Shown here: piece after piece, positions 6,466 through 56,761 of the stretch
Layout of the letters: each line of letters begins with the position of its first letter
Position numbering within the stretch: the stretch's first letter is position 1
Source of the DNA: Nanobdellota archaeon
GTDB lineage: Archaea; Nanobdellota; Nanobdellia; Woesearchaeales; UBA583
NCBI GenBank assembly: GCA_048625195.1
Contig: JBMCRE010000003.1
Coordinates: 5,341 to 69,340, forward strand
Direction: 5' to 3'
Length of the DNA stretch: 64,000 bases
Made by a program: the position numbers and the translations under genes
The notes under the pieces: model-generated
The model's database searches: none
The model's input: the letters and a program-made list of their open reading frames with translations, nothing else
What the model was told of the DNA's origin: nothing

Positions 6466-8631
6466 ATGAATTTTAATGTAAATAAATTTGAGTGTATAGA
6501 AAAGATTTTGAGAGAATATAATTATGATTTTGAATTAGTTAGAGTTATTGATGATAAATGTTTTAGTGGTTGTTTTATTGTTAAAAATAAAAAGTTAGCA
6601 AATAGATATGAGATAATTAAATTTATAGATTCAGTTGAAAAAGAAGTTATTGATAATTTTAAATCAGAAATAAATGTTTTGTCTATTTTAAATCATTCAA
6701 ATATTCCAAAAATATATGATGTATTGATAGATAAAGATATTGTTTTGTTTAGGTGTGAATATGTAAATGGAATGTCTTTAGAAGAATTGATCAAAATTTG
6801 TAAGAAAAAAAATATTTATTTGTCAGAAGTTTTTATTTTAAATTTGATATTGAAATTATCTGATGCTTTGTATTATACTCATAATGAATTGAAAAGTAAT
6901 GGTCAAAAAGTTGAAATAATTCATTGTGATGTAAAGCCATCTAATGTTTTAGTTAAAATTGATGAAAAAGATTTGAAAAACAATTTTAATTTGGATAATT
7001 TAGAAGTTTATTTGATTGATTTTGGGATTTTTATTTTGCAAAATGAGATAAGGAATAATTTTGTTGGAAGTATCAATTATATGTCAAAATGGCAAATTGA
7101 AAATAAAAAAATAGATTGGAGGACTGATGTTTATCAATTAACTTTATTGTATTTAGAATTATTAACTAATGAAAAACCTTTTTCTAAATTTAGTTATAAA
7201 AAAATTGTTGAATTGAAAAAAAATGATGAAATAAATATTCCTAAAAATATTTCAATAAGTAAAATAAATTTTATTAAGAAAGGAACTTTTACTAATGAAA
7301 ATAAAAAATATTTAGATGAAAAAGATTTTTTAAATGATTTGAATAAATTGTATATACGTCAAAAAGTTTTGAAAAAGTTTAATGATAATAAAATGTTTAT
7401 TAAAGGATTTTTTTTGTTTTCTTTTTGTTTGTTATTTTTTAATATGAGTTATCTTGTTTATGATTATAAATTTAATAGTGTTTATTCTATGTTGAAAATT
7501 GTTGAAGATAATGATAATTTATCTTTAGATGAATTAGAGCATGTTTTAAATAATATTCAAAAAAGAAGCTTTGAAAAAAAGTATTTGAGTTCTTTATTAG
7601 ATGGTTATTTTATTGATAAAAATAATTCTTTATTATATCCTAGTTTTTTAGATGATAGAGGTGAATGGATTTTAATTAAAAATCATTTAGAGGCCTCTGG
7701 CGCTTTTGTAGGGTTGTTATATGATAATAGTAATGATGATTTGAAGGTATTAAATATTGCAAATAAATATGTAGATGATATTTTGAAATCGAGTTATAGA
7801 GGTTCTGATGAAAATAGATATACTTATGCATTGATTAGTGCATATCAACATACAGGTGATGAGAAATATGTCAATAGTTTGAAAAATATTTCAGAAGAGA
7901 TTATAGTGGCATTTGAAAAAAAACAAGGATTGAATCAAATTAGGGATATGTATTATTATGAATTATTTTTATTTTTGTATAATTATACTGGGAATAAAAA
8001 ATATTTAGATGTTTTTGAAAATAGAGTTAAGGATTTTATTAAGTATAATATTAATGAAAATGGATATGTTTATGAGAATTCGATTATTAATTTTACTTCT
8101 CCTATGGGATTTATTAGAGAAGATAAAAGTAATGTTCTTTTGGTTGAATTGGATGATAAAAAAATAGGTAAGCGTTTGTCTAATAATTATTCTAATTTAG
8201 AATATTTTGAGAATAAAACTTCTTGTTTCACAAGAGATTTTGCAATAGTTTTAATTGCTTTGAATAGTTTATACGATGTGACTAATGATAGTTTATATGA
8301 AGATACTATCGAGAGAATGGTTGATTATTATATTAAAAATAATTTGGTAGAGGGAGTAGATTATTTATTTGTTTTTAGAGCTGGAAATTTAGAAATACCT
8401 TATGATATTTTAGCAACTGTTAGGATGGTTGATTTTTTTAAAGAATATAATTCTTCTTTGTATGAAAAAAAATTAAGATCTTTATTAGATTTGAGTAATT
8501 TTAATTTAAAGTATGATCATGGTATATTGGTTAATAATGTTAAAATTAATGGTTTTCAATATCAACATAATGCTCATGAGTTGATTAATCAAACATTTGT
8601 TTTAACAGATAGAGAATTTTTGAATATTTGA
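6466..8631 (+). CDS. Membrane Ser/Thr protein kinase (Hanks-type) with a large C-terminal alpha/alpha-repeat domain
   Basis: Catalytic loop IIHCDVKPSNVLV and DFG motif (YLIDFGIF). There is one hydrophobic segment (FIKGFFLFSFCLLFFNMSYLVY). The C-terminal ~385 aa carry repeated helical-hairpin motifs (ALISAYQHTGDEKYVNSL, LFLYNYTGNKKYLDVF, LNSLYDVTNDSLYEDTI). Confidence 0.75.
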   Translation: MNFNVNKFECIEKILREYNYDFELVRVIDDKCFSGCFIVKNKKLANRYEIIKFIDSVEKEVIDNFKSEINVLSILNHSNIPKIYDVLIDKDIVLFRCEYVNGMSLEELIKICKKKNIYLSEVFILNLILKLSDALYYTHNELKSNGQKVEIIHCDVKPSNVLVKIDEKDLKNNFNLDNLEVYLIDFGIFILQNEIRNNFVGSINYMSKWQIENKKIDWRTDVYQLTLLYLELLTNEKPFSKFSYKKIVELKKNDEINIPKNISISKINFIKKGTFTNENKKYLDEKDFLNDLNKLYIRQKVLKKFNDNKMFIKGFFLFSFCLLFFNMSYLVYDYKFNSVYSMLKIVEDNDNLSLDELEHVLNNIQKRSFEKKYLSSLLDGYFIDKNNSLLYPSFLDDRGEWILIKNHLEASGAFVGLLYDNSNDDLKVLNIANKYVDDILKSSYRGSDENRYTYALISAYQHTGDEKYVNSLKNISEEIIVAFEKKQGLNQIRDMYYYELFLFLYNYTGNKKYLDVFENRVKDFIKYNINENGYVYENSIINFTSPMGFIREDKSNVLLVELDDKKIGKRLSNNYSNLEYFENKTSCFTRDFAIVLIALNSLYDVTNDSLYEDTIERMVDYYIKNNLVEGVDYLFVFRAGNLEIPYDILATVRMVDFFKEYNSSLYEKKLRSLLDLSNFNLKYDHGILVNNVKINGFQYQHNAHELINQTFVLTDREFLNI

Positions 8632-11284: not shown

Positions 11285-12151
11285 ATGGAATTTAAAATTG
11301 AAGAAATAAAAAGTAAAATAGAAACAATTAGAGGAGTTCAGGTGATAATTGATAATGATTTAGCAAAAATGTATGAAGTAGAAACAAAAGTGCTAAATCA
11401 AGCAGTTAAAAGAAATATTGAGAGATTCCCAAGTGATTTCATGTTTCAATTAAGTGAAGAAGAAGTAATAAACTTGAAGTCACAATTTGTGACTTCAAAA
11501 GAACATGGTGGTAGAAGAACATTGCCTTATGCTTTTACTGAACAAGGTGTTGCAACTTTATCTGGAGTTCTAAAGAGCAAAAAAGCAATTGAGATAAATA
11601 TTCAGATTATGAGGGCTTTTGTTCTTATGAGAAAATATTTTACTCAAACTTATAATATTTTACAAAAAGTTCATCTGATTGAGAGCAAACAATTAAGGTT
11701 TGAAATTGAATTTAATCAAAAACTAAATGATTTATTTGATAAATTTGAAGTTGGGGGAATAGATAGAAAAGAAGGAGTGTTTTTTGAAGGAGAAATATTT
11801 GATGCGTGGGTTTTTATTTCTGATTTAATTAGAAGTAGTAAAGAAAAAATAATTCTCATAGATAATTATGTTGATGAGAAAGTATTAAAATTATTTACAA
11901 AGACTAATTCTAATGTTAATGTTATAATTTATACTAGTAAATTTAATAAGTTAGATTTTGAAAAATATAATCTGCAGTATGGAAATATCAAATTAAAAAC
12001 TATTGATGGTATTCACGATAGATTTATAATAATTGATGATAAATTATATCATATTGGAGCATCATTAAAAGATTTAGGTAAAAAGATGTTTGCATTTTCT
12101 AAATTAGAACATTCTCTTGAAAAAATTAATAAAATATTATATGAAAGGTAA
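11285..12151 (+). CDS. ORF6N (KilA-N-like DNA-binding) domain protein with a C-terminal PLD-like (HxR variant of HKD) domain
   Basis: N-terminus: IRGVQVIIDNDLAKMYEVETKVLNQAVKRNIERFPSDFMFQL...GGRRTLPYAFTEQGVATLSGVLKS. C-terminus: IHDRFIIIDDKLYHIGASLKD, which fits H-x-[KR]-x4-D-x6-G spacing. Confidence 0.7.
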   Translation: MEFKIEEIKSKIETIRGVQVIIDNDLAKMYEVETKVLNQAVKRNIERFPSDFMFQLSEEEVINLKSQFVTSKEHGGRRTLPYAFTEQGVATLSGVLKSKKAIEINIQIMRAFVLMRKYFTQTYNILQKVHLIESKQLRFEIEFNQKLNDLFDKFEVGGIDRKEGVFFEGEIFDAWVFISDLIRSSKEKIILIDNYVDEKVLKLFTKTNSNVNVIIYTSKFNKLDFEKYNLQYGNIKLKTIDGIHDRFIIIDDKLYHIGASLKDLGKKMFAFSKLEHSLEKINKILYER

Positions 12152-12200
12152 TATTCCAAAGATTTATAATAAATAAGTTTAGATTAATAAATATAGAAAA

Positions 12201-12347
12201 ATGATATTTGATTTTCAAGAAGATGAATTTGTGGAGTATAAAAAAAGTTTTAACTATTCTGTGATTGAGAGTTTAGTTGCTTTTTCAAATTTTAAAGGTG
12301 GAAAGGTTATTGTTGGAGTAGATCAGAAAAAAGAAAAGTTATTATGA
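12201..12347 (+). pseudogene. N-terminal fragment (48 codons) of an AlbA_2/Schlafen-type putative DNA-binding regulator
   Basis: MIFDFQEDEFVEYKKSFNYSVIESLVAFSNFKGGKVIVGVDQKKEKLL then a stop. E.EfK ... AfaN..GG.i.iGv is the AlbA_2 signature. Confidence 0.5.
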
Positions 12348-12985
12348 GGTTTTTGAGTATGTTTAAATATATTTACATTGATGAGAGTGGAGATTTAGGG
12401 TTTAATAATAAAAAAAGTTCAAGATATTTTATTATTTCAGCTTTAATTATTGATGAACCAAATGATGCTAAAAGAATTATCAAAAATGCTCGAAGAAATA
12501 AGTTCAAAAAAGAATTAAAAAAAACAAATGAATTAAAAGCAAATAATTCTTCTAAAGAATTAAGAAGTTATATTTTAACTAAAATTAATTATATAAAAAA
12601 TACAAGTATATTTCATATTGTTTTAGATAAAAAAGAAGTAAGAAGTAGTTTTTTAAAAAGTAATAAACATAAATTATATAATTTTGTTGCAGGGAAACTT
12701 GTTAAAAATATTCTAATGAATAATACAGATTTATATATTACAATTGACAAATCAAAAGGAAAATTGTTTTTAATAAATGATTTTAATCAATATTTTAAGG
12801 AAAAGTTGTTTGAGAGGAATAGTTGTTTGAAATGTAAGATTTCTAATAGTTATTCTCATAATTTTGCAGGGTTGCAATTGGTAGATTTTATTGCTTGGTC
12901 GGTTTTTAGAAAGTATGAGAGTTTAGAATCTTTTTATAATGACAAATTAAGAATAGAACAAGAGGTATTTAGTGTATGGTATTGA
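12344..12985 (+). CDS. DUF3800 family protein
   Basis: YIYIDESGDLGF near the N-terminus and GLQLVDFIAWSVFRKY near the C-terminus, both typical of DUF3800. Confidence 0.7.
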   Translation: MRFLSMFKYIYIDESGDLGFNNKKSSRYFIISALIIDEPNDAKRIIKNARRNKFKKELKKTNELKANNSSKELRSYILTKINYIKNTSIFHIVLDKKEVRSSFLKSNKHKLYNFVAGKLVKNILMNNTDLYITIDKSKGKLFLINDFNQYFKEKLFERNSCLKCKISNSYSHNFAGLQLVDFIAWSVFRKYESLESFYNDKLRIEQEVFSVWY

Positions 12986-14592: not shown

Positions 14593-15911
14593 ATGGATAA
14601 AGAAAAGATAAAAAAAATATATTTAGATCAAAGAGAATATTATTTAGAAAAAAAGAGATTATATCAAGAGAAATTGATTTAAATTTTTATATAAAATCTA
14701 AATAAATTGTATTAATTTCAGGAATTAGAAGATGTGGGAAATCAACATTACTATACTTGATAAAAGATAAAATAAACCTAAAAAAAGAAGAGATATTTTA
14801 TTTTAATTTAGATGATGAAAGGATAATTGATTTTCAAGTTGAAGATTTTAACAAATTGCTTGAAATTCATATGGAAATGTTTGAGATAACTAATATTAAA
14901 GATATAGTTTTGTTTTTTGATGAAATTCAAAATATTAAAGGTTAGGAGAAATTTTTAAATAGAATGTATGAGAGAGAATGAAAATATTTGTTACAGGTTC
15001 TAATGCGAAATTGCTTAGTTCTGAAATTTCAACATCTCTTACAGGGAGAAATTTGGTTCTAAAACTATATCCTTTTTCTTTTACAGAATTTCTAATTTAT
15101 AAAAATAAATCATTTAATTTGGATTATTTAAGTACAGTATATTCAGTTAATCTAAAGATTTTATTTAATGAATATTTACAATATGGTGGTTTCCCATTGG
15201 TTTTGTACGAACAAAATTTACAAATAATAGATATATTTTATCAAGACATATTATGTAGGGATATAGTTGCAAGATACAATTTAAGTCAAGTTGATGAGTT
15301 AAAAAGTTTAAGTACTTCCTTAATTATAAATATTGGAAAATTATTTTCATATTCTAAATTGAAAGATATTACTAAAATGAAAAGTCTTAGCAGTTTGAAA
15401 ACTTATTTAGATTATTTATCAAATTCATATTTATTATATTATTTAAGTAAATTTGATTATTTATATAATAAACAGGTTTTAAATTCTAAAAAAGTTTATG
15501 TTCAAGATATTGGTTTTCATAATAGTTTAGGTTTTAAATTTAGTAACGATAAAGGTAGAATTTTAGAAAATATTGTTTTTATTGAATTAAAAAGACGAGG
15601 AAAGAAGATATATTATCATAAAGATAAAAAAGAGTGTGATTTTATTATAAAAGAAGGATTGGATACAGTTTCTGTAATTCAGGTAACACAGAGTTTGGAG
15701 AATGGAGAAGAGTGGATAGAGACAAAAAAAAAGAGAAATAGAAGGATTAATTGATGCTTGTAGAGTTTATGGCTTAAAGAGAGGATTAATTCTAACTGAA
15801 GATGAAGAGGGATAAGAGACTAGAGAATTGAGTTTAGAGAATGGGGGAAAGAGAGTGGTTAAAATTGTAATAAAACCCATATGGAAATGGTTATTGAGTG
15901 AAGGTTTTTAA
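14593..15911 (+). pseudogene. Decayed COG1373 AAA+/DUF4143 ATPase paralogue
   Basis: Collinear with the intact copies (ISGIRRCGKSTLLYLI, FFDEIQNIKG, KIFVTGSNAKLL, ECDFIIKEGLDTVSVIQVT, IKPIWKWLLSE). It is broken by in-frame stops (IKG*EKF, ERE*KIF, EEG*ETRE) and a frameshift near 15750. Tracked ORFs 14757..14945 and 14978..15754 are its pieces. Confidence 0.75.
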
Positions 15912-15964
15912 AATTGTTAATAATTGTTAATTTTATCGATTATGAACGATAATTTTATAAATAA

Positions 15965-17308
15965 TTGACGACTATAATCTATAATATGAATACAAAAATA
16001 AGAGAAATTCTTGAAAACCAAAACCATTGGTGGTTTAATAAAAGTTTTGAGACAGGAATAATTAGAACACAATATTTCTCTAAAATAGATAGTTATATGA
16101 GTGCAAAAGAGATATTTTTTCTTGTAGGGGTAAGGCGTACAGGCAAATCAACAATAATGTATCAAATAATTGATAAACTTCTAAAAAGTAAAGTTAATGA
16201 GAAAAATATATTGTATCTTAATTTGGATGAACCATATCTTCAAAGCCAATTTTCAGATCCTAATCTAATTACTTCAATTATTGAAGAATATTTAGTTGAA
16301 AATAAAGAAATAGATAAATTATATTTATTCATAGATGAAATACAAGTATTTCCTTATTGGTCTCAAAGTTTAAAATTCATCTATGATACAAAATCTCAAA
16401 TTAAAATAGTTGCAAGTGGTTCAAGTTCAAATCTAATAAAAAGTGATTTGGCAGTTAAATTATCAGGAAGATATTTTTATACAAGTGTATATCCTTTATC
16501 TTTTAATGAATACTTATACTTTAACAATTTAAAAGACCTAAAATCTATTGAAATAAAAAAAGAATTTGAAAACTACATAAAATATGGTGGATTTCCAAGG
16601 GTTGTTCTTGAAAAAAATAATGATTTTAAACAAGAAATTTTGAAAAATTATTTTCAGACAATTTACATGAAAGATATTATAGTTCCAAATAAAATTAGAA
16701 GTAATGAAGATATATACAAATTATTATACTATTTGCTCTCAAATGTAGGAAAACACTTCTCATTTACATCATTATCTAAAGTATTGAATATTTCTGTTGA
16801 TACAATAAAAGAATATATAGAATATATGGCAAAAACATACTTTGTAACAATATTAAATAAATATGATTATTCTCTCAAAAAACAACTGGTAAATCCCAAA
16901 AAAATATATTCAATAGATACTGGAGTAATTAATGCAATTGCATTTAAGTTCAGCGAAAATTATGGCAGACTGCTAGAAAACCTTATATTTACACAATTAA
17001 AAAGACAAGATAAAGAAATCTACTATCATAATAACAAGTATGAATGTGACTTTGTGATAAAGGAAGGATTGGACATAGTATCAGCAATACAGGTAACTGC
17101 ATCACTAGAAAGCGAACCAACAAAAAAAAGAGAAATAGAGGGTTTATTAGATGCTTGTAGAGTTTATGACTTAAATACAGGATTAATTTTAACTGAAGAT
17201 GAAGAGGGAGAAGAGATGAGGGAGTTGAGACTGGAGAGTGGGGAAAAGAGAGAAGTTAGAATTGTAATAAAACCCATATGGAAATGGTTATTGAGTGAAA
17301 CTCAATAA
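15965..17308 (+). CDS. COG1373-type ATPase (AAA_14 + DUF4143 domains)
   Basis: Walker A GVRRTGKST, Walker B-like LFIDEIQ, and C-terminal ECDFVIKEGLDIVSAIQVT...IKPIWKWLL. The real start is probably the ATG at 15986 (MNTKIREI). Confidence 0.8.
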   Translation: MTTIIYNMNTKIREILENQNHWWFNKSFETGIIRTQYFSKIDSYMSAKEIFFLVGVRRTGKSTIMYQIIDKLLKSKVNEKNILYLNLDEPYLQSQFSDPNLITSIIEEYLVENKEIDKLYLFIDEIQVFPYWSQSLKFIYDTKSQIKIVASGSSSNLIKSDLAVKLSGRYFYTSVYPLSFNEYLYFNNLKDLKSIEIKKEFENYIKYGGFPRVVLEKNNDFKQEILKNYFQTIYMKDIIVPNKIRSNEDIYKLLYYLLSNVGKHFSFTSLSKVLNISVDTIKEYIEYMAKTYFVTILNKYDYSLKKQLVNPKKIYSIDTGVINAIAFKFSENYGRLLENLIFTQLKRQDKEIYYHNNKYECDFVIKEGLDIVSAIQVTASLESEPTKKREIEGLLDACRVYDLNTGLILTEDEEGEEMRELRLESGEKREVRIVIKPIWKWLLSETQ

Positions 17309-34165: not shown

Positions 34166-34432
34166 TTATATTCTCTCATTCTTTTTTAACTTTGCTCTTT
34201 TTCTTAGTTTATTCATAAATTTTTTTGAATCTTCTATACTACTAAAAGTATTTGCTTCTTTACTATCTAAGACTTTTTTATATTCATCTCTAATTTCTAA
34301 ATTATCAAATATTTTTTTTCTAACTGCTTCTCTTATAAATTCTTGAATACTCATATATCTTCTAGAATCAGCATAATCTTTTGCTAAATCAAAAAAATTA
34401 TCTTGAAATTTTAAATTAATTTGTGTTGCCAT
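34166..34432 (-). CDS. Ribbon-helix-helix (CopG-like) protein
   Basis: MATQINLKFQDNFFDLAKDYADSRRYMSIQEFIREAVRKKI has the beta-strand/helix/helix pattern of RHH antitoxins or regulators. The plus-strand ORF 34137..34346 is its shadow. Confidence 0.55.
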   Translation of the reverse strand: MATQINLKFQDNFFDLAKDYADSRRYMSIQEFIREAVRKKIFDNLEIRDEYKKVLDSKEANTFSSIEDSKKFMNKLRKRAKLKKNERI

Positions 34433-34509
34433 ATATCTTATTGTATCTCTAGATATACAAATTTTTTGGTTTTAATTATTATCTCAATATTTTTTATTTA
34501 TTTAAAAAA

Positions 34510-42736: not shown

Positions 42737-43336
42737 ATGTTAAATAAAAAAATTAATTTTAAGTTAGAAAAAAGTTTTTTTGATAAAAATACTTTAGATA
42801 TTGCAGAAGAATTAATAGGTAAAGTTTTTGTTTATGAATCACCTTTAGGAATTATTAAAGGAATAATAAATGAAACAGAAGCTTATAGAGAAGATGATCA
42901 AAGTTGTCATGCATATAATGGTAGAAAAACTAAAAAGAATGCAGCTATGTTTTTAAGAAGTGGTCATTTGTATGTTTATTTTACATATGGAATGTATTAT
43001 TGTGTAAATATTGTTACTGGAAAAAAAGATGTTGGAGAAGCTGTTTTAATTAGAAGTGTTATTCCAATTCAAGGAGAAGATATTATGAGAAAAAATAGAA
43101 AATGGAATAAAAAACAAGTTAAAGGTTTATGTGATGGTCCTGCAAAGTTTTGTATGGCTTATGGATTAGATAAAAAATTTAATGGTTATGATTTATTAGA
43201 TGAAAATTCAAAAATTTATATAGAAGATTTAAATTATAATGTTAATAATATTGAAAAAAATCAAAGAATAGGTATTTCAAAAGATAAACATTTAGAATGG
43301 AGATTTTATTGTAATGAAAAAGATATTGTTTTTTAG
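42737..43336 (+). CDS. mpg: 3-methyladenine DNA glycosylase (AAG/Mpg family)
   Basis: IAEELIGKVFV...ETEAYREDDQSCHAYNGRKTKKNAAMFLRSGHLYVYFTYGMYYCVNIV, then DGPAKFCMAYGLD. Confidence 0.85.
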   Translation: MLNKKINFKLEKSFFDKNTLDIAEELIGKVFVYESPLGIIKGIINETEAYREDDQSCHAYNGRKTKKNAAMFLRSGHLYVYFTYGMYYCVNIVTGKKDVGEAVLIRSVIPIQGEDIMRKNRKWNKKQVKGLCDGPAKFCMAYGLDKKFNGYDLLDENSKIYIEDLNYNVNNIEKNQRIGISKDKHLEWRFYCNEKDIVF

Positions 43337-48895: not shown

Positions 48896-49795
48896 ATGAG
48901 TATAGAAAAAGGAAATATTAATGAAAAAAATATTAATAAATTTAAAAAGATTAAAAAAGTTGATAATATAAATAAATTAAAAATTATTGCATTAAATATT
49001 AGAAAAGATATTATTAATATGTTGTATTTAGCAAAGAGTGGACATACTGCAGGTTCTTTAGGATTAGCAGATATATTTACAGTGCTGTATTTTGATAAAT
49101 TAAATCATAAACCTAAAAATCCTCAATATTCTAAAAGAGATTTTGTAATATTATCTAATGGTCATGTTTGTCCTGTTTTATATTCTGTTTTAGCAAGAAG
49201 TGGTTATTTTAAATTGGATGAATTGAAAAAATTAAGGAAAAAAAAATCATTACTTCAAGGACATCCACATAAAAATTTAAATATTGGTATAGAAAATAGT
49301 TCTGGACCATTAGGACAAGGAATTTCTCAAGCAGTAGGATTAGCTGTATCTTTGAAAAGAGATAATAAAAAGAATAAAGTTTATACAATAGTTGGTGATG
49401 GAGAATTGCAAGAAGGACAAGTTTGGGAATCTTTTATGTTTGCAAGTAAAGAAAAATTAGATAATTTGATAGTAATGATTGATAGAAATAATATACAAAT
49501 TAGTGGAAGTACTGATGATGTTTGTAGTTTAGAACCATTATCAAAGAAAATTAATTCATTTGGTTTTTCTACTATTAATATTGATGGGAATAATATATCA
49601 CAAATTCAACATGCAATAGATTATGCTTTAAAAATTAAAGATAAACCTGTTTGTATTATTGCAAATACTATTGCAGGTAAAGGTGTATCTTTTATTGAAA
49701 GTAATTATCAATGGCATGGTAGAGTTCCTAAAGGTGAAGAAAAAGAATTGGCAATTAAAGAGTTAAATAAAAAAATTAAAGAGGTGAATGAATAA
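48896..49795 (+). CDS. Transketolase, N-terminal subunit
   Basis: SGHTAGSLGLADIFTVLYF, LSNGHVCPVLYSVLA, GPLGQGISQAVG and GDGELQEGQVWE. Confidence 0.85.
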   Translation: MSIEKGNINEKNINKFKKIKKVDNINKLKIIALNIRKDIINMLYLAKSGHTAGSLGLADIFTVLYFDKLNHKPKNPQYSKRDFVILSNGHVCPVLYSVLARSGYFKLDELKKLRKKKSLLQGHPHKNLNIGIENSSGPLGQGISQAVGLAVSLKRDNKKNKVYTIVGDGELQEGQVWESFMFASKEKLDNLIVMIDRNNIQISGSTDDVCSLEPLSKKINSFGFSTINIDGNNISQIQHAIDYALKIKDKPVCIIANTIAGKGVSFIESNYQWHGRVPKGEEKELAIKELNKKIKEVNE

Positions 49796-50913
49796 TGCTT
49801 AAAAAACCAGTTTCTTCTAGATTAGAAGAAAGAGAAGAATCTAAAAAAAACGAAAATATTATTAAAAAAAAATTTAAAAAAAAGTTAGTTAAAAGTGTTG
49901 AAGATAATAAAAAAATAGTTTATAAAACTCAAAATAAAAAAGAAAAAATAATAAAAAAATCTTATATTGATAAACTTGATATTAATTCTTTTGGTTCTAT
50001 TAGAGAAGGATTTTCAAAGGGTTTAATGGAATTAGGTAAATTAAATAAAGATGTTGTTGTTTTATCTGCTGATTTAGCAAGTTCTGTTAAAGTTGCTGAT
50101 TTTGCAAAAAAGTATCCTAAAAGATTTTTTGAATTTGGAATTGCTGAACAGAATATGATGAGTGCAAGTGCTGGAATGTGTTTGAATAATAAAATACCTT
50201 TTGTAACATCTTATGCTGTTTTTAATCCTGGTAGAAATTGGGATCAAGTAAGAGTAAGTGTTTGTTATTCTAATGCAAATATTAAAATATTTGGTTCACA
50301 TGCTGGATTATTAACTGGAGCAGATGGGGCAACTCATCAGGCATTAGAAGATATTGCAATAACAAAAGTTTTAGCAAATATGTGTGTAATTTCTCCATGT
50401 GATGAAGAAGAGATGAGAAAAGCAGTAATTGAGAGTGTAAAGTATAATGGACCTGTTTATTTAAGAGGTGTTAGAGAAAATTCTTTAAATATTACAAATA
50501 AAAATACTAAATTTGAAATAGGAAAGTCAAATGTATTAGACAAAGGAGATGACTTATTAATAGTTTCTTGTGGAATTTGTGTTAGATTTGCACTTGAGGC
50601 TAAACGAGAATTATTAAAATTAGGAATAGATTCAACTGTTTTAAACATGCATACAATTAAACCTGTTGATGAACATAATCTTTTAAAATATGCAAAAAAA
50701 TGTAAAAAAGTTATTACTATTGAAGATCATCAAGTTATTGGTGGACTTGGAAGTAGTGTTTGTGATGTTTTATCTGAAAAATGTCCTGTAAGAGTTGAAA
50801 AAATTGGAATGAATGATAAATTTGGTGAGAGTGGAGAAGGGTATAACTTATTAGAAAAATATAATATATCTACAAAAGAAATAATTAAAAGAGCAAAAAA
50901 ATTGGTGAAATGA
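49795..50913 (+). CDS. Transketolase, C-terminal subunit, with a Lys-rich N-terminal extension
   Basis: SIREGFSKGLMELGK, FEFGIAEQNMMSASAGM and GATHQALEDIAI. The start overlaps the upstream stop (TAATG). The first ~65 residues are extra and Lys-rich. Confidence 0.8.
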   Translation: MLKKPVSSRLEEREESKKNENIIKKKFKKKLVKSVEDNKKIVYKTQNKKEKIIKKSYIDKLDINSFGSIREGFSKGLMELGKLNKDVVVLSADLASSVKVADFAKKYPKRFFEFGIAEQNMMSASAGMCLNNKIPFVTSYAVFNPGRNWDQVRVSVCYSNANIKIFGSHAGLLTGADGATHQALEDIAITKVLANMCVISPCDEEEMRKAVIESVKYNGPVYLRGVRENSLNITNKNTKFEIGKSNVLDKGDDLLIVSCGICVRFALEAKRELLKLGIDSTVLNMHTIKPVDEHNLLKYAKKCKKVITIEDHQVIGGLGSSVCDVLSEKCPVRVEKIGMNDKFGESGEGYNLLEKYNISTKEIIKRAKKLVK

Positions 50914-53350: not shown

Positions 53351-56300
53351 TTATAATAATTTTTTTAAAAATTGTCCTGTATAACTTTTTGTATATTTAA
53401 TTAATTCTTCAGGAGTTCCTTTTGCTATAATTTCTCCACCATTTTCTCCACCTTCATATCCTAAATCTATAATATAATCGCAACTTTTTATTACATCTAA
53501 ATTGTGTTCAATTACAAATACACTATTCCCTTTATCTACTAATCTATTTAAAACTTGTATTAATTTATTTACATCTTCGAAATGTAATCCAGTTGTAGGT
53601 TCGTCTAAAATATATATTGTGTGTCCTCTTTTAAATTTAGCAAGTTCTTTTGTAAGTTTAATTCTTTGTGATTCTCCTCCAGATAGAGTAGTTGCTGGTT
53701 GTCCTAATTTAATATAACTTAAACCAACATCATATAGCGTTTGTAATTTTCTTTTAATACTTTTGTGATTGTCAAAAAATTCAAGAGCAGTTTCTACATC
53801 CATATTTAATACATCGGATATATTTTTTCCTTTGTATGTGATTTCTAAAGTATCTTTATTATATCTTTTTCCTTTACATTCTTCACATTCAACATATACA
53901 TCTGGTAAAAAGTTCATTTCAATTTTTATAACTCCATCTCCTCTACAATTTTCACATCTACCTCCATGAACATTAAATGAAAATCTTCCTGGTAGGTATC
54001 CACGAATTTTTGATTCTTTTGTTTGTGAAAAAATTGTTCTAATATCATCAAAAATTTTGGTATATGTTGCAGGATTAGATCTAGGAGATTTTCCAATAGG
54101 ATCTTGGTCTATTACTACAATATTTGTAACTGAATCAGGAATGGTTATTTTATCGTATTTTCCAACTTTTTCATTTACTAAAGAGAAATGTTCTCTTATT
54201 GCACCAACTAAAGTTTGATTTATCAGAGTACTTTTTCCTGAACCAGATACACCTGTAATTCCACATAAGATATTTAAAGGAAATTTAACATTTAAATTTT
54301 TCAAATTATTTTCTTTTGCTCCTTCTAAAATTATGTAATTTTTTGCAAAACTTCTTCTATAAATTTTATCGTAAATTTTTTCCCAACTATAAAATTTAAT
54401 AATTTGATTATTCTCCTTAATAGATTTATTCCATGGCTTATCTAGTGTTAAAAATAAAGTTTTGTTATTTTCAATTTTTTTTATAGGATTTTTAAAATCA
54501 TCTATTAAAAAATCAAGTTCAAATTCTTTAGTTATAGCAGTTTTAGTTTTTGAAAATGTTTTTTCTATAAATATTATTTCTTCAAAGGTATTTTTAGAAA
54601 ATTCTTTATTAATCCAACTTATAGTTTCTGTGTAAAACTCTTCTTTTCTTGATGTTATAATATATAATTTATGTCCATCTTTTTTTAATTGTTTAATGTA
54701 TTGTTTAATATTATCATTTATTGTAAAGTTTGAAATATTTTTTTTATAATTATTATTATATTCTTTTTTTATTTCTTTTGGTTTTATTCCAATTGTATTT
54801 TTAAATTCCCAATCATAAATTGTATTATAATTTATATTTGTGAATTTAAAAGTATTAATTAATATATCATCAATCTCTATTCCTATATTGAATTTTTTAT
54901 TCTCTCTATTACCTATAGTTCTTCTTGTATTAGGTGTTTGAATACTTTTTTTTTTTGATAAATATTGTCCAGTTAGAGATTTTGAATTATTGGAAATTTC
55001 TTTTGGAGTTCCAATAGCTGTTATATGTCCACCATGTATTCCTGCACCAGGACCAATGTCTATAATATAATCACTTTCTTTCATAGTGTCTTCATCGTGT
55101 TCGACAACTATTAGTGTATTTCCTATATCTCTTAACTGTTTTAATGTTTGAATTAATTTTGTATTATCTTTTTGATGTAATCCAATTGAAGGTTCATCTA
55201 AAACATATAAAACTCCTGTTAAATTTGAGCCTATTTGAGTTGCAAGTCTAATTCTTTGTGCTTCTCCACCTGACAGTGTTCCTGCGTTTCTTGACATTGT
55301 TAAATATCCTAAACCTACATTATTTAAGAAAGATAATCTATCATCGATCTCTTTTAAAACTTGTTTTGCAATAAATAATTCTTTTTGAGTTAATTTGCTT
55401 GGTAATTTTTCAAAAAATTCTTTAGATTTTTGTATAGATAAATCAGTTATATCAATTATAGACTTATTATCTATTTTTACAGCAAGTATTGTATCTTTTA
55501 ATCTTTTTCCTTTACATGTAGGACAAGGTTGCATAATAAAAAATTTTTCTAATTTGTTTTTTCTATATTCAGAATCTGTTTGATTAAATAATCTTTGTGT
55601 TTGTGGAATAATCCCTTCCCATTGTGTATAAACATTTGATGGATCTGTTCCATACAATAATATATTTTTTTGTTTATCTGTTAATTTTTTAATTGGAGTA
55701 AATACATCAAAATTATATTTTTTAAATATACCTGATAGTTGTTTTACTCTCCATGAAAAATCCATTTTTCCATAAACTGCAATTGCTCCTTGCATAATTG
55801 ATTTGTTTTCATCTGGAATTATTAATTTTTCAGATATGATCATTTGTTCTCCTATTCCTAAGCAAGTAGGGCATGCTCCAAATGGTGAATTAAAGGAAAA
55901 CATTCGAGGTTCTAATTGTTCAAATACTATTTCAGGGTGGTTAGGACAAGCTCCAAAAGTAGAATAAATAGTTTCTCCAAAACCTCTTTGTATATCTTTT
56001 TTGATTTTATTATTTGTTTTTTTTAATTTTTCTTCTTTTTCAATATCTAGGGTTATAAGCGTTCCTTTTCCAAATTTTAAAGCTTGTTCAACAGAGTCAG
56101 AAATTCTTTGTTTATCTTCATTTGAAATTTTAATTCTATCTATTACTACTTCTATATAATGTTTTTCATATCTTTTTAATTTAAGTTCTTCGTTTATATT
56201 ATCTAATTCATATATATTTTGATTAACTCTTACTTTTGAAAATCCTTCTTTTTTTAAATCTTCAAATATTTTTTCGTGTGTTCCTTTTTGTCCTCTTATA

Positions 56301-56761
56301 ATTGGAGCTAATATTATAAGTTTTTTATTTGATTCTAACATTATTAGTTGAGTTATGTTTTGAGCTGATTGAGGTTTTATTGGAGTATTACATTTAGGAC
56401 AATAAGATGTTCCTATTCTTGCAAATAGTAATCTTAAATAATCATAAATTTCTGTAACTGTTCCAACTGTAGATCTTGGATTTTTAGAAGTAGTTTTTTG
56501 CTCAATAGATATTGCAGGTGATAAACCATCTATTGAATCAACATCTGGTTTATTCATTAATCCTAAAAATTGTCTTGCATAAGCTGATAGAGATTCTACA
56601 TATCTTCGTTGTCCTTCAGCGTAAATTGTGTCAAATGCTAGTGTAGATTTTCCTGAACCTGATATACCAGTTATAACTACAAATTTATTTCTTGGTATAT
56701 CTACATCTATATTTTTTAAATTATGTTCTCTTGCTCCTTTAATTGTGATTTTATTTTTCAT
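53351..56761 (-). CDS. uvrA: Excinuclease ABC subunit UvrA with an inserted HAD/NT5C-like domain
   Basis: All UvrA landmarks are present: [82 protein letters not shown] and [12 protein letters not shown]. It is 1136 aa, versus a usual length of about 940. The extra block is at aa ~621-803 (nt 54353..54901). Confidence 0.9.

Follow-up and report, generated by a model that had tools for sequence, protein, structure and literature searches.

The 64-kb window (the whole stretch of DNA analyzed here) comes from a genome of the Nanoarchaeota, a DPANN lineage, and has a GC content of 21.9%. On its reverse strand it contains a uvrA gene whose predicted product carries an additional HAD-superfamily domain in the loop between its two nucleotide-binding domains (NBD-I and NBD-II). 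The open reading frame (ORF) is identical to an NCBI protein titled 'MAG: excinuclease ABC subunit UvrA [Nanoarchaeota archaeon]'; it is labeled P0003 below, and the only two other proteins found to carry the insert are labeled P0004 and P0005. The gene and its parts, in the order of the protein chain, are as follows.

53351..56761, (-) strand: uvrA ORF, 1136 amino acids (aa) and stop codon, identical to NCBI MFW6285781.1
54914..56761, (-) strand: N-terminal UvrA half, aa 1-616, NBD-I with Walker motifs, zinc modules and the signature LSGGEAQR (first NCBIfam stretch, alignment)
56051..56371, (-) strand: UvrB-binding domain, aa 131-237 (Pfam PF17760, UvrA_inter, E 2.3e-32)
55544..55828, (-) strand: UvrA DNA-binding (insertion) domain, aa 312-406 (Pfam PF17755, E 2.2e-21)
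54887..54913, (-) strand: N-terminal junction peptide GNRENKKFN, aa 617-625 (alignments)
54356..54886, (-) strand: predicted NT5C-type HAD domain, aa 626-802, Rossmannoid core and shortened cap (profile built from standalone proteins only, hhalign, AlphaFold2 model, Foldseek)
54344..54355, (-) strand: C-terminal junction RSFA, aa 803-806, after the conserved last helix (alignments)
53351..54343, (-) strand: C-terminal UvrA half, aa 807-1136 and stop codon, NBD-II with GVSGSGKST and the C-terminal zinc finger (NCBIfam, alignment)

Two NCBIfam models recognize the ORF as UvrA: NF001503 with 1400 bits against a cut-off of 1147, and TIGR00630 with 1339 bits, also above its cut-off. The NF001503 match is broken in two, with a first stretch at aa 2-619 and a second that begins past the insert, and the best N-terminal stretch for both models ends at aa 616-619. 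The single chain contains two ABC-type NBDs, in each of which Walker A, the LSGG signature and Walker B were found, and the cysteines of the zinc modules (CPKC, CPTCLG, CPTCKG, CENCRG and CEECKG) are invariant in 64 aligned UvrAs. The UvrB-binding domain is the hallmark of class I UvrA. A reading of this DNA made earlier from the letters alone (the sequence-only reading) had described a 1136-aa ORF bearing the UvrA landmarks in order; all of the landmarks it quoted were located in the ORF. Judged by these features, the ORF is a complete class I UvrA, the predicted damage sensor of bacterial-type nucleotide excision repair. The short inter-NBD loop typical of UvrA is absent, and a 190-aa domain (aa 617-806) stands in its place, which makes the protein a UvrA variant and leaves its homology unaffected.

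The domain order is the same as in the class I UvrAs of Geobacillus stearothermophilus (2R6F/3UWX), M. tuberculosis (3ZQJ) and T. maritima (3PIH), namely NBD-I holding the UvrB-binding domain, the DNA-binding domain and zinc modules, followed by NBD-II and the C-terminal zinc finger, and the window protein is 41-46% identical to the solved UvrAs. In the full-length AlphaFold2 (AF2) model, the mean predicted local distance difference test score (pLDDT) is 75 and the core blocks mostly reach 80-90. Target-normalized template modeling (TM) scores of this model against solved UvrAs are 0.79-0.85 for 3uwx/2r6f (B. stearothermophilus), 0.75-0.79 for most chains of 3zqj, 0.81 for T. maritima 3pih and 0.94 for the T. 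maritima core 6n9l. Since the UvrA core superposes on the solved structures (0.79-0.94 for 3uwx, 2r6f and 6n9l), the two NBDs are still predicted to pack normally, in agreement with the idea that the insert leaves the NBD-I/NBD-II packing intact. Unlike the solved UvrAs, the window protein has its inter-NBD loop replaced by a folded domain of ~190 aa. Class II UvrA and UvrA paralogues (D. radiodurans UvrA2 2VF7, Ecm16 7SH1) are likewise lineage-specific variants of the architecture; those arose by losing the UvrB-binding domain, whereas the window UvrA keeps all class I domains and gains one. A different insertion is present in two other UvrAs from Nanoarchaeia (P0064 and P0118, 1005-1015 aa), a low-complexity stretch of ~30 aa rich in Lys, Glu and Ser after the UvrB-binding domain (alignment columns 250-280), and these two proteins also carry a C-terminal extension.

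The insert was delimited by alignment with the nearest insert-free UvrAs (P0006-P0008 and P0020; 954-968 aa, 67-74% identical over the shared parts). The extra block covers aa 617-806, or window positions 54344-54913, a few residues off the initial estimate of aa ~621-803. At the insertion site the chain of the insert-free relatives reads RRKP/KSFIELKGA (the slash marks the site), within the loop joining NBD-I to NBD-II, which has been described as flexible in solved UvrAs. In the window protein the junctions read RRTI/GNRE at the start and RSFA/KNYI at the end. The two ends are the best-conserved parts of the block: 5 of its 10 first positions (aa 616-625; pattern GNxxNKxF) and 9 of its 14 last positions (pattern W..IYDKI.R.SF) are invariant in the three carriers, compared with 42 of the remaining 167. 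The peptide GNRENKKFN is absent both from standalone NT5C proteins and from ordinary UvrAs. The high conservation of ends that have no counterpart in the standalone proteins suggests that the junctions themselves are under constraint.

By exhaustive phmmer search against 1.84 billion representative proteins, 801 matches to the insert were obtained at E<=1e-3, the top ones being proteins of ~190 aa that align over essentially the entire insert; the best match (P0123) has an E-value of 1.6e-16 and 36% identity. A hidden Markov model (HMM) built from standalone homologues only recognizes aa 626-802 with 140 bits over model positions 2-189 of 192, and hhalign comparison of the three inserts with 11 archaeal standalone proteins gives a probability of 99.96% (E 4.9e-39). 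The Pfam family PF06941 (NT5C) is matched by all 34 standalone homologues in a 37-sequence alignment, and the profile of this alignment matches the putative 5'(3')-deoxyribonucleotidase 3bwv at 5e-15 and the human mitochondrial deoxyribonucleotidase (mdN) 1mh9 at 7e-10. The insert alone has no direct match to PF06941 at E<=0.01, so its assignment to NT5C is transitive, through the homologues. The earlier expectation of a PF06941 domain is thus borne out by the homologues and by the 3bwv and 1mh9 profile matches, and not by a direct match of the insert. In the Pfam scan the insert alone stays below every gathering score (HAD_2 with 22.2 bits against a cut-off of 23.8; other HAD models weak), and a single-sequence phmmer search of the PDB gave marginal matches only (E 0.56), on a copper-transporting ATPase and there on its HAD-type domain.

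The predicted structure agrees with this assignment. Modeled alone by AF2, the insert reaches a pLDDT of 90.4 and a predicted TM-score of 0.88, and forms a beta-alpha Rossmannoid core with a helical cap, consistent with the independent Rossmannoid fold that had been proposed for it. Foldseek returned 77 PDB matches of the model at E<=1e-3, those listed being almost all of HAD fold with probability 1.00, and the highest TM-scores (0.63-0.69) belong to mdN, cdN and an mdN-like designed protein. In the model, a predicted cap lies at the place expected for NT5C, right after motif I, with helices at insert residues 46-63 and 68-79; its first helix is 10 residues shorter in all three inserts than in every standalone homologue. 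Each of the HAD-like motifs that the sequence-only reading had listed in this block, including SWEKIYDKI, is present. Taken together, by homology and by model, the insert is a complete domain of the NT5C-type HAD phosphatase family, flanked by two short conserved junction peptides.

With the solved PF06941 enzymes (mdN 1MH9, cdN 2I7D and the bacterial 3BWV) the insert has in common the HAD Rossmannoid core and, as predicted, a helical cap following motif I, and all four motifs are in register (in motif I, the second Asp); the family profile matches these structures at E-values from 5e-15 to 1e-9. Unlike them, it has a glutamate at the nucleophile position and a first cap helix shortened by 10 residues, is embedded in another protein, and shares just 13-16% identity, with the insert alone falling below the PF06941 threshold. 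Its nearest relatives are standalone NT5C proteins of DPANN archaea (P0123, and P0277 and P0170 from operons for DNA polymerase PolD), which are 28-36% identical end to end and share with the insert the PWN motif, the C-terminal W-x-x-I helix and the archaeal lineage. These relatives are free-standing proteins of ~190 aa with an intact DxD and a full cap, and without the GNxxNKxF and RxSF peptides. The best standalone matches are labeled Nanoarchaeota or Woesearchaeota, and archaeal proteins also come out on top when an HMM of the three inserts is used for the search. By these relationships, the insert descends from the DPANN archaeal family of ~190-aa putative standalone NT5C proteins.

Among the best 120 of 8000 UvrA matches, proteins longer than 1100 aa are limited to the window protein, P0004 (JGI metagenome 3300036940; 1145 aa; contig GC 29%) and P0005 (ENA ERZ23498389; 1156 aa; contig GC 37%), and none of the other 117 closest UvrAs listed has the insert. 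Both P0004 and P0005 hold a 191-aa block at exactly the site used in the window protein, without any indel relative to the window block. A neighbor-joining tree of the UvrA core (950 columns, insert left out) has the topology ((P0003,P0004),P0005) with 100% bootstrap; since the three carriers form one clade, a single insertion in their common ancestor is indicated. A profile of the three inserts found no further carrier in GTDB species-representative genomes or JGI metagenomes, and a second metagenome scan with the P0004 insert as query gave three distant standalone relatives, none flanked by UvrA. A separate search for homologous proteins, with the insert alone or the three-insert profile as query, misses even the three known carriers, and its silence is uninformative on embedded copies.

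The same evidence bears on whether the insert could be a chimera of the assembly, an intein-like element or selfish DNA of another kind. The dip in GC content to 16-19% inside the insert, compared with 25-30% in its flanks, might be taken as a sign of such an origin. However, the same block with the same in-frame junctions occurs in three organisms and in three independent assemblies of differing GC content, which for practical purposes excludes a chimera. The GC content at third codon positions (GC3) is 9% in the insert and 8% in the remainder of the gene, and this near-equality attributes the GC dip to amino acid composition rather than to foreign DNA. Inteins typically begin with Cys or Ser and end with His-Asn followed by Cys, Ser or Thr. 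The junctions RRTI/GN and SFA/KN lack intein-type terminal residues, and the Pfam scan of the window UvrA gave no Hint or LAGLIDADG signal, so the intein candidate was rejected. We regard an artefact or a mobile element as an exceedingly improbable explanation.

Sequence divergence between the carriers is larger in the insert (38-55% amino acid identity) than in the UvrA core (76-84%). For P0003 and P0004, the non-synonymous divergence (dN) is 0.30 in the insert and 0.126 in the core. The ratio to synonymous divergence (dN/dS) among the carriers is 0.26-0.35 in the insert compared with 0.11 in the core, values that are rough because dS is near saturation. No indels and no stop codons are found in the 191 insert codons across the three lineages. 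As estimated from these comparisons, the inserted domain is retained under purifying selection at constant length.

An explanation that has to be weighed against these data is that a resident NT5C copy landed in frame in a permissive surface loop and has been tolerated as a functionless passenger, the loss of the nucleophile marking the onset of decay and the domain persisting only because its clean removal is unlikely. The higher dN and lower GC of the insert, the nucleophile lost, the very narrow distribution (three proteins) and the position in a loop described as flexible all suit this explanation. It is opposed by a dN/dS of ~0.3 and not ~1, by the complete lack of indels in lineages that have diverged to 38% identity, and by the conservation of the PWN motif, of both junction peptides and of five residues with catalytic or ligand-binding roles; moreover, useless sequence would be expected to erode in an AT-rich reduced genome. 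We therefore consider a mere passenger rather improbable.

Genomic neighborhoods of the standalone relatives connect this family to DNA synthesis. A scan of GTDB species-representative genomes gave 80 NT5C gene loci, mostly in bacteria of the candidate phyla radiation and in DPANN archaea. Of the 21 archaeal ones, 10 have their NT5C gene placed downstream of Cdc6 and between the genes for the PolD subunits DP1 and DP2 (L015, L023, L024, L033, L042, L051, L054, L055, L061 and L074). The hosts of these PolD-nested genes are Woese-, Pace- and Nanoarchaeota, and there are sometimes two NT5C copies or an additional HD-domain gene. In locus L003:317-8890 the gene order is Cdc6/Orc1, PolD DP1, NT5C, NT5C, HD, PolD DP2, with 4-nucleotide overlaps, and in L004:300-7212 and L005 it is Cdc6, DP1, NT5C, DP2. 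No description of the Cdc6-DP1-NT5C-DP2 arrangement was found in the literature searched. Two stop-to-stop ORFs in these operons contain both domains in one frame, NT5C-HD at L015:4920-6158 and HD-NT5C at L042:585-1730, which suggests fusions of two putative nucleotide phosphohydrolases inside the PolD operon. NUDIX genes are found near standalone NT5C genes in L007-L010.

Both of the other uvrA genes with the insert lie next to genes for predicted nucleotide hydrolases. Two NUDIX genes lie directly upstream of uvrA in L002:32-1260, and an HD-domain gene lies directly downstream of it in L001:5036-5620, without detectable relatedness of the latter to the HD gene of the PolD operon. Neither a NUDIX nor an HD-domain gene adjoins uvrA in the window.

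The best standalone match P0123 corresponds to MFW6285984.1, titled 'MAG: 5' nucleotidase, NT5C type [Nanoarchaeota archaeon]', and has an intact DxD. It is 203 accession numbers away from MFW6285781.1, and its contig has a GC content of 22.5% compared with 21.9% for the window; on these two grounds, accession proximity and GC content, P0123 and the window UvrA probably share one genome, which would then keep a free paralogue with an intact DxD. At its own locus (L006:2542-5606), the P0123 gene is a divergent neighbor of a gene for a Hef/XPF-type helicase-nuclease (DEAD, Helicase_C, ERCC4 and HhH domains). The L006 contig derives from SRR21542054, which may also be the source metagenome of the window.

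The active-site motifs of the HAD domain were located by alignment and compared in a census of 269 aligned family members, in which counts refer to members having a residue at the given column.

54869..54877, (-) strand: HAD motif I, E629-I630-D631, with Glu (codon GAG) at the place of the Asp nucleophile
54650..54655, (-) strand: HAD motif II, T703-S704, within LYIITSR
54542..54544, (-) strand: HAD motif III lysine, K740, within SKTK
54497..54502, (-) strand: HAD motif IV, D754-D755, within FLIDD
54428..54436, (-) strand: family-specific motif P776-W777-N778

The motif I nucleophile is Asp in 256 of 257 members, the sole Glu being that of the P0004 insert, and the second Asp of motif I is likewise found in 256 of 257. 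Motif II has Thr or Ser in 267/267, motif III has Lys in 268/268, motif IV has Asp in 268/268, and the Asn of the PWN motif is present in 263/267. The window insert keeps D631, T703, K740, D754-D755 and P776-W777-N778. Its motif I reads E629-I-D631-D-I, compared with E-L-D-D-V in P0004 and D-T-D-D-V in P0005, and the nucleophile codons are GAG (Glu, read from the sequence), GAA (Glu) and GAT (Asp), respectively. The previously remarked E-I-D-D-I in place of D-x-D-G-V is therefore real, at a column that is otherwise almost uniformly Asp; a DxDx(T/V) motif with an Asp nucleophile is absent from the window protein and P0004 and present in P0005. By parsimony, the insertion would have come first and the replacement of Asp by Glu later, in the common lineage of P0003 and P0004. 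Nem1, another HAD phosphatase, loses its activity when the motif I aspartates are changed to Glu, and the authors of that study conclude that the aspartate geometry is strictly required (PMC13543951). By analogy with this result, the presence of Glu in place of the nucleophile speaks against efficient turnover by the window protein.

These residues also bear on a different explanation, an active bifunctional enzyme. In each of the three carriers the insert would have 5'(3')-(deoxy)ribonucleotidase activity, using Glu629 as nucleophile or a re-routed chemistry, and UvrA would dephosphorylate deoxynucleoside monophosphates (dNMPs) at the repair site, for example those from excised damaged oligonucleotides. 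In its favor, the catalytic residues apart from the nucleophile are unchanged across the three carriers, P0005 has the full DxD, and the domain is under purifying selection; NUDIX genes adjoin uvrA in L002 and occur near standalone NT5C in L007-L010. Furthermore, gene order ties the parent family to PolD, in which DP1 acts as a proofreading exonuclease (PMC4996933). Against it, a Glu nucleophile is absent from all >250 standalone or non-UvrA family members surveyed, the equivalent change abolishes the activity of Nem1, the cap is 10 residues shorter, and the host probably keeps the standalone paralogue P0123 with an intact DxD. On balance we find an active enzyme in all three carriers unlikely.

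The shortened cap could also be interpreted as opening the active site to DNA, in which case the insert would act as a DNA-end phosphatase that removes 3'-phosphates or blocking phosphoesters at lesions found by UvrA. The concept has a precedent in PNKP and T4 Pnk, where a HAD phosphatase module lies within a DNA-repair protein. The HAD domain of PNKP is of another HAD subfamily, which lacks a cap and works on the 3'-phosphate ends of DNA. The tie of the parent family to the replicative polymerase operon and a Pfam HAD_PNKP match, albeit weak (E 0.031, 14.8 bits), would speak for this function along with the cap. However, the 14.8 bits are far under the cut-off of 27.6, by homology the insert belongs with NT5C, a clade of capped enzymes for small molecules, the predicted structure retains two long helices of the cap, and two of the three carriers have lost the nucleophile. 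We judge a DNA-end phosphatase very improbable.

We favor, with a confidence only slightly above even, a joint reading of these data in which the insert is a nucleotide- or phosphate-binding, catalytically impaired module placed on the inter-NBD loop of a working UvrA. The UvrA part would still be an ordinary ATP-driven damage sensor, and the inserted domain would loop out of the inter-NBD linker as an independent module. In the window protein this module may no longer turn over phosphomonoesters efficiently and may still bind a ligand that bears phosphate or Mg, for which a deoxynucleoside monophosphate is the most plausible candidate. P0005, the earliest-branching carrier with the full DxD, may still be a working 5'(3')-deoxyribonucleotidase. 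The insert would then serve UvrA as an attached ligand-binding or regulatory unit, on a linker that is ordered or not according to the ATP state, and it may modulate or report on the UvrA ATPase cycle. In the cryo-electron microscopy study of C. thermocellum UvrA, 'linker' density is listed for AMPPNP-bound reconstructions only (PMC12796330); by analogy, the linker appears to be coupled to the nucleotide state.

Several observations weigh against this binding-module reading. The known carriers are three in number and all metagenomic. The insert evolves ~2.4 times faster than the UvrA core at non-synonymous sites, and the dN/dS values are rough, as noted above; the higher dN together with the GC dip inside the insert also fits a weakly constrained, tolerated passenger. 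A glutamate nucleophile may support slow catalysis. Inside the insert, the full-length AF2 model has a pLDDT of 27-72 with three sequences covering this part, and is unreliable there for docking.

A wider hypothesis can be formulated for the family. DPANN archaea are generally thought to depend on salvaged nucleotides. The DPANN NT5C phosphatases, whose genes lie between those of the two PolD subunits in about half of the archaeal loci surveyed and which in one clade are part of UvrA itself, might constitute a dedicated partner module of DNA synthesis and repair that binds or dephosphorylates dNMPs, or damaged dNMPs, from proofreading and excision, the UvrA-embedded copy being a nucleotide-sensing pseudo-enzyme that couples the dNMP pool, or the release of excision products, to the ATPase cycle. 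This proposal is speculative, and we give it a low probability.

Few DNA-repair proteins are as conserved and as well studied as UvrA. To our knowledge, the described UvrA variants (class II, Ecm16 and DrrC types) arise by domain loss. No description of a UvrA with an NT5C or HAD domain was found in the literature searched, in line with the initial impression that this architecture had not been reported, and the gain of a folded, enzyme-type domain in the inter-NBD loop of UvrA was not found there either. The scope is narrow, comprising three metagenomic sequences. If the insert does bind nucleotides or phosphate, it would represent a natural case of allosteric input to an ABC-type damage sensor through its linker. 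Together, the insert and the PolD-operon placement of its parent gene point to a possible link of dNMP phosphatases with DNA synthesis or repair in reduced-genome archaea. Of the extensions of this finding, the broader association of this NT5C family with PolD operons in DPANN archaea is the most interesting.

Within the 64-kb window, no uvrB, uvrC, PolD or standalone NT5C genes were found. A 16-bit match to the NT5C HMM at 34169-34471 was rejected, being a K/E-rich helical segment with no HAD domain. A gene for methylpurine-DNA glycosylase (Pfam Pur_DNA_glyco, E 3e-60) is present on the (+) strand at 42737-43336, ~10 kb from uvrA.

A 721-aa ORF at 6466-8631 (+) has an N-terminal eukaryote-type Ser/Thr kinase domain (Pfam Pkinase, E 9e-25), and its remaining ~450 aa have no Pfam match. 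Two adjacent ORFs at 14978-17308 (+) encode paralogous AAA_14/DUF4143 ATPases, the first of which (14978-15754) matches the end of the model only and looks N-terminally truncated; genes with ORF6N and DUF3800 domains lie near this pair, at 11285-12985. These AAA_14, ORF6N and DUF3800 genes could be what is left of a mobile element or a defense system inside a glycosyltransferase cluster. Transketolase is split into two abutting genes at 48896-50913 (+), with the N-terminal half at 48896-49795 and the C-terminal half at 49795-50913 sharing one base, and the gene for the C-terminal half opens with a Lys/Glu-rich extension of ~60 aa.

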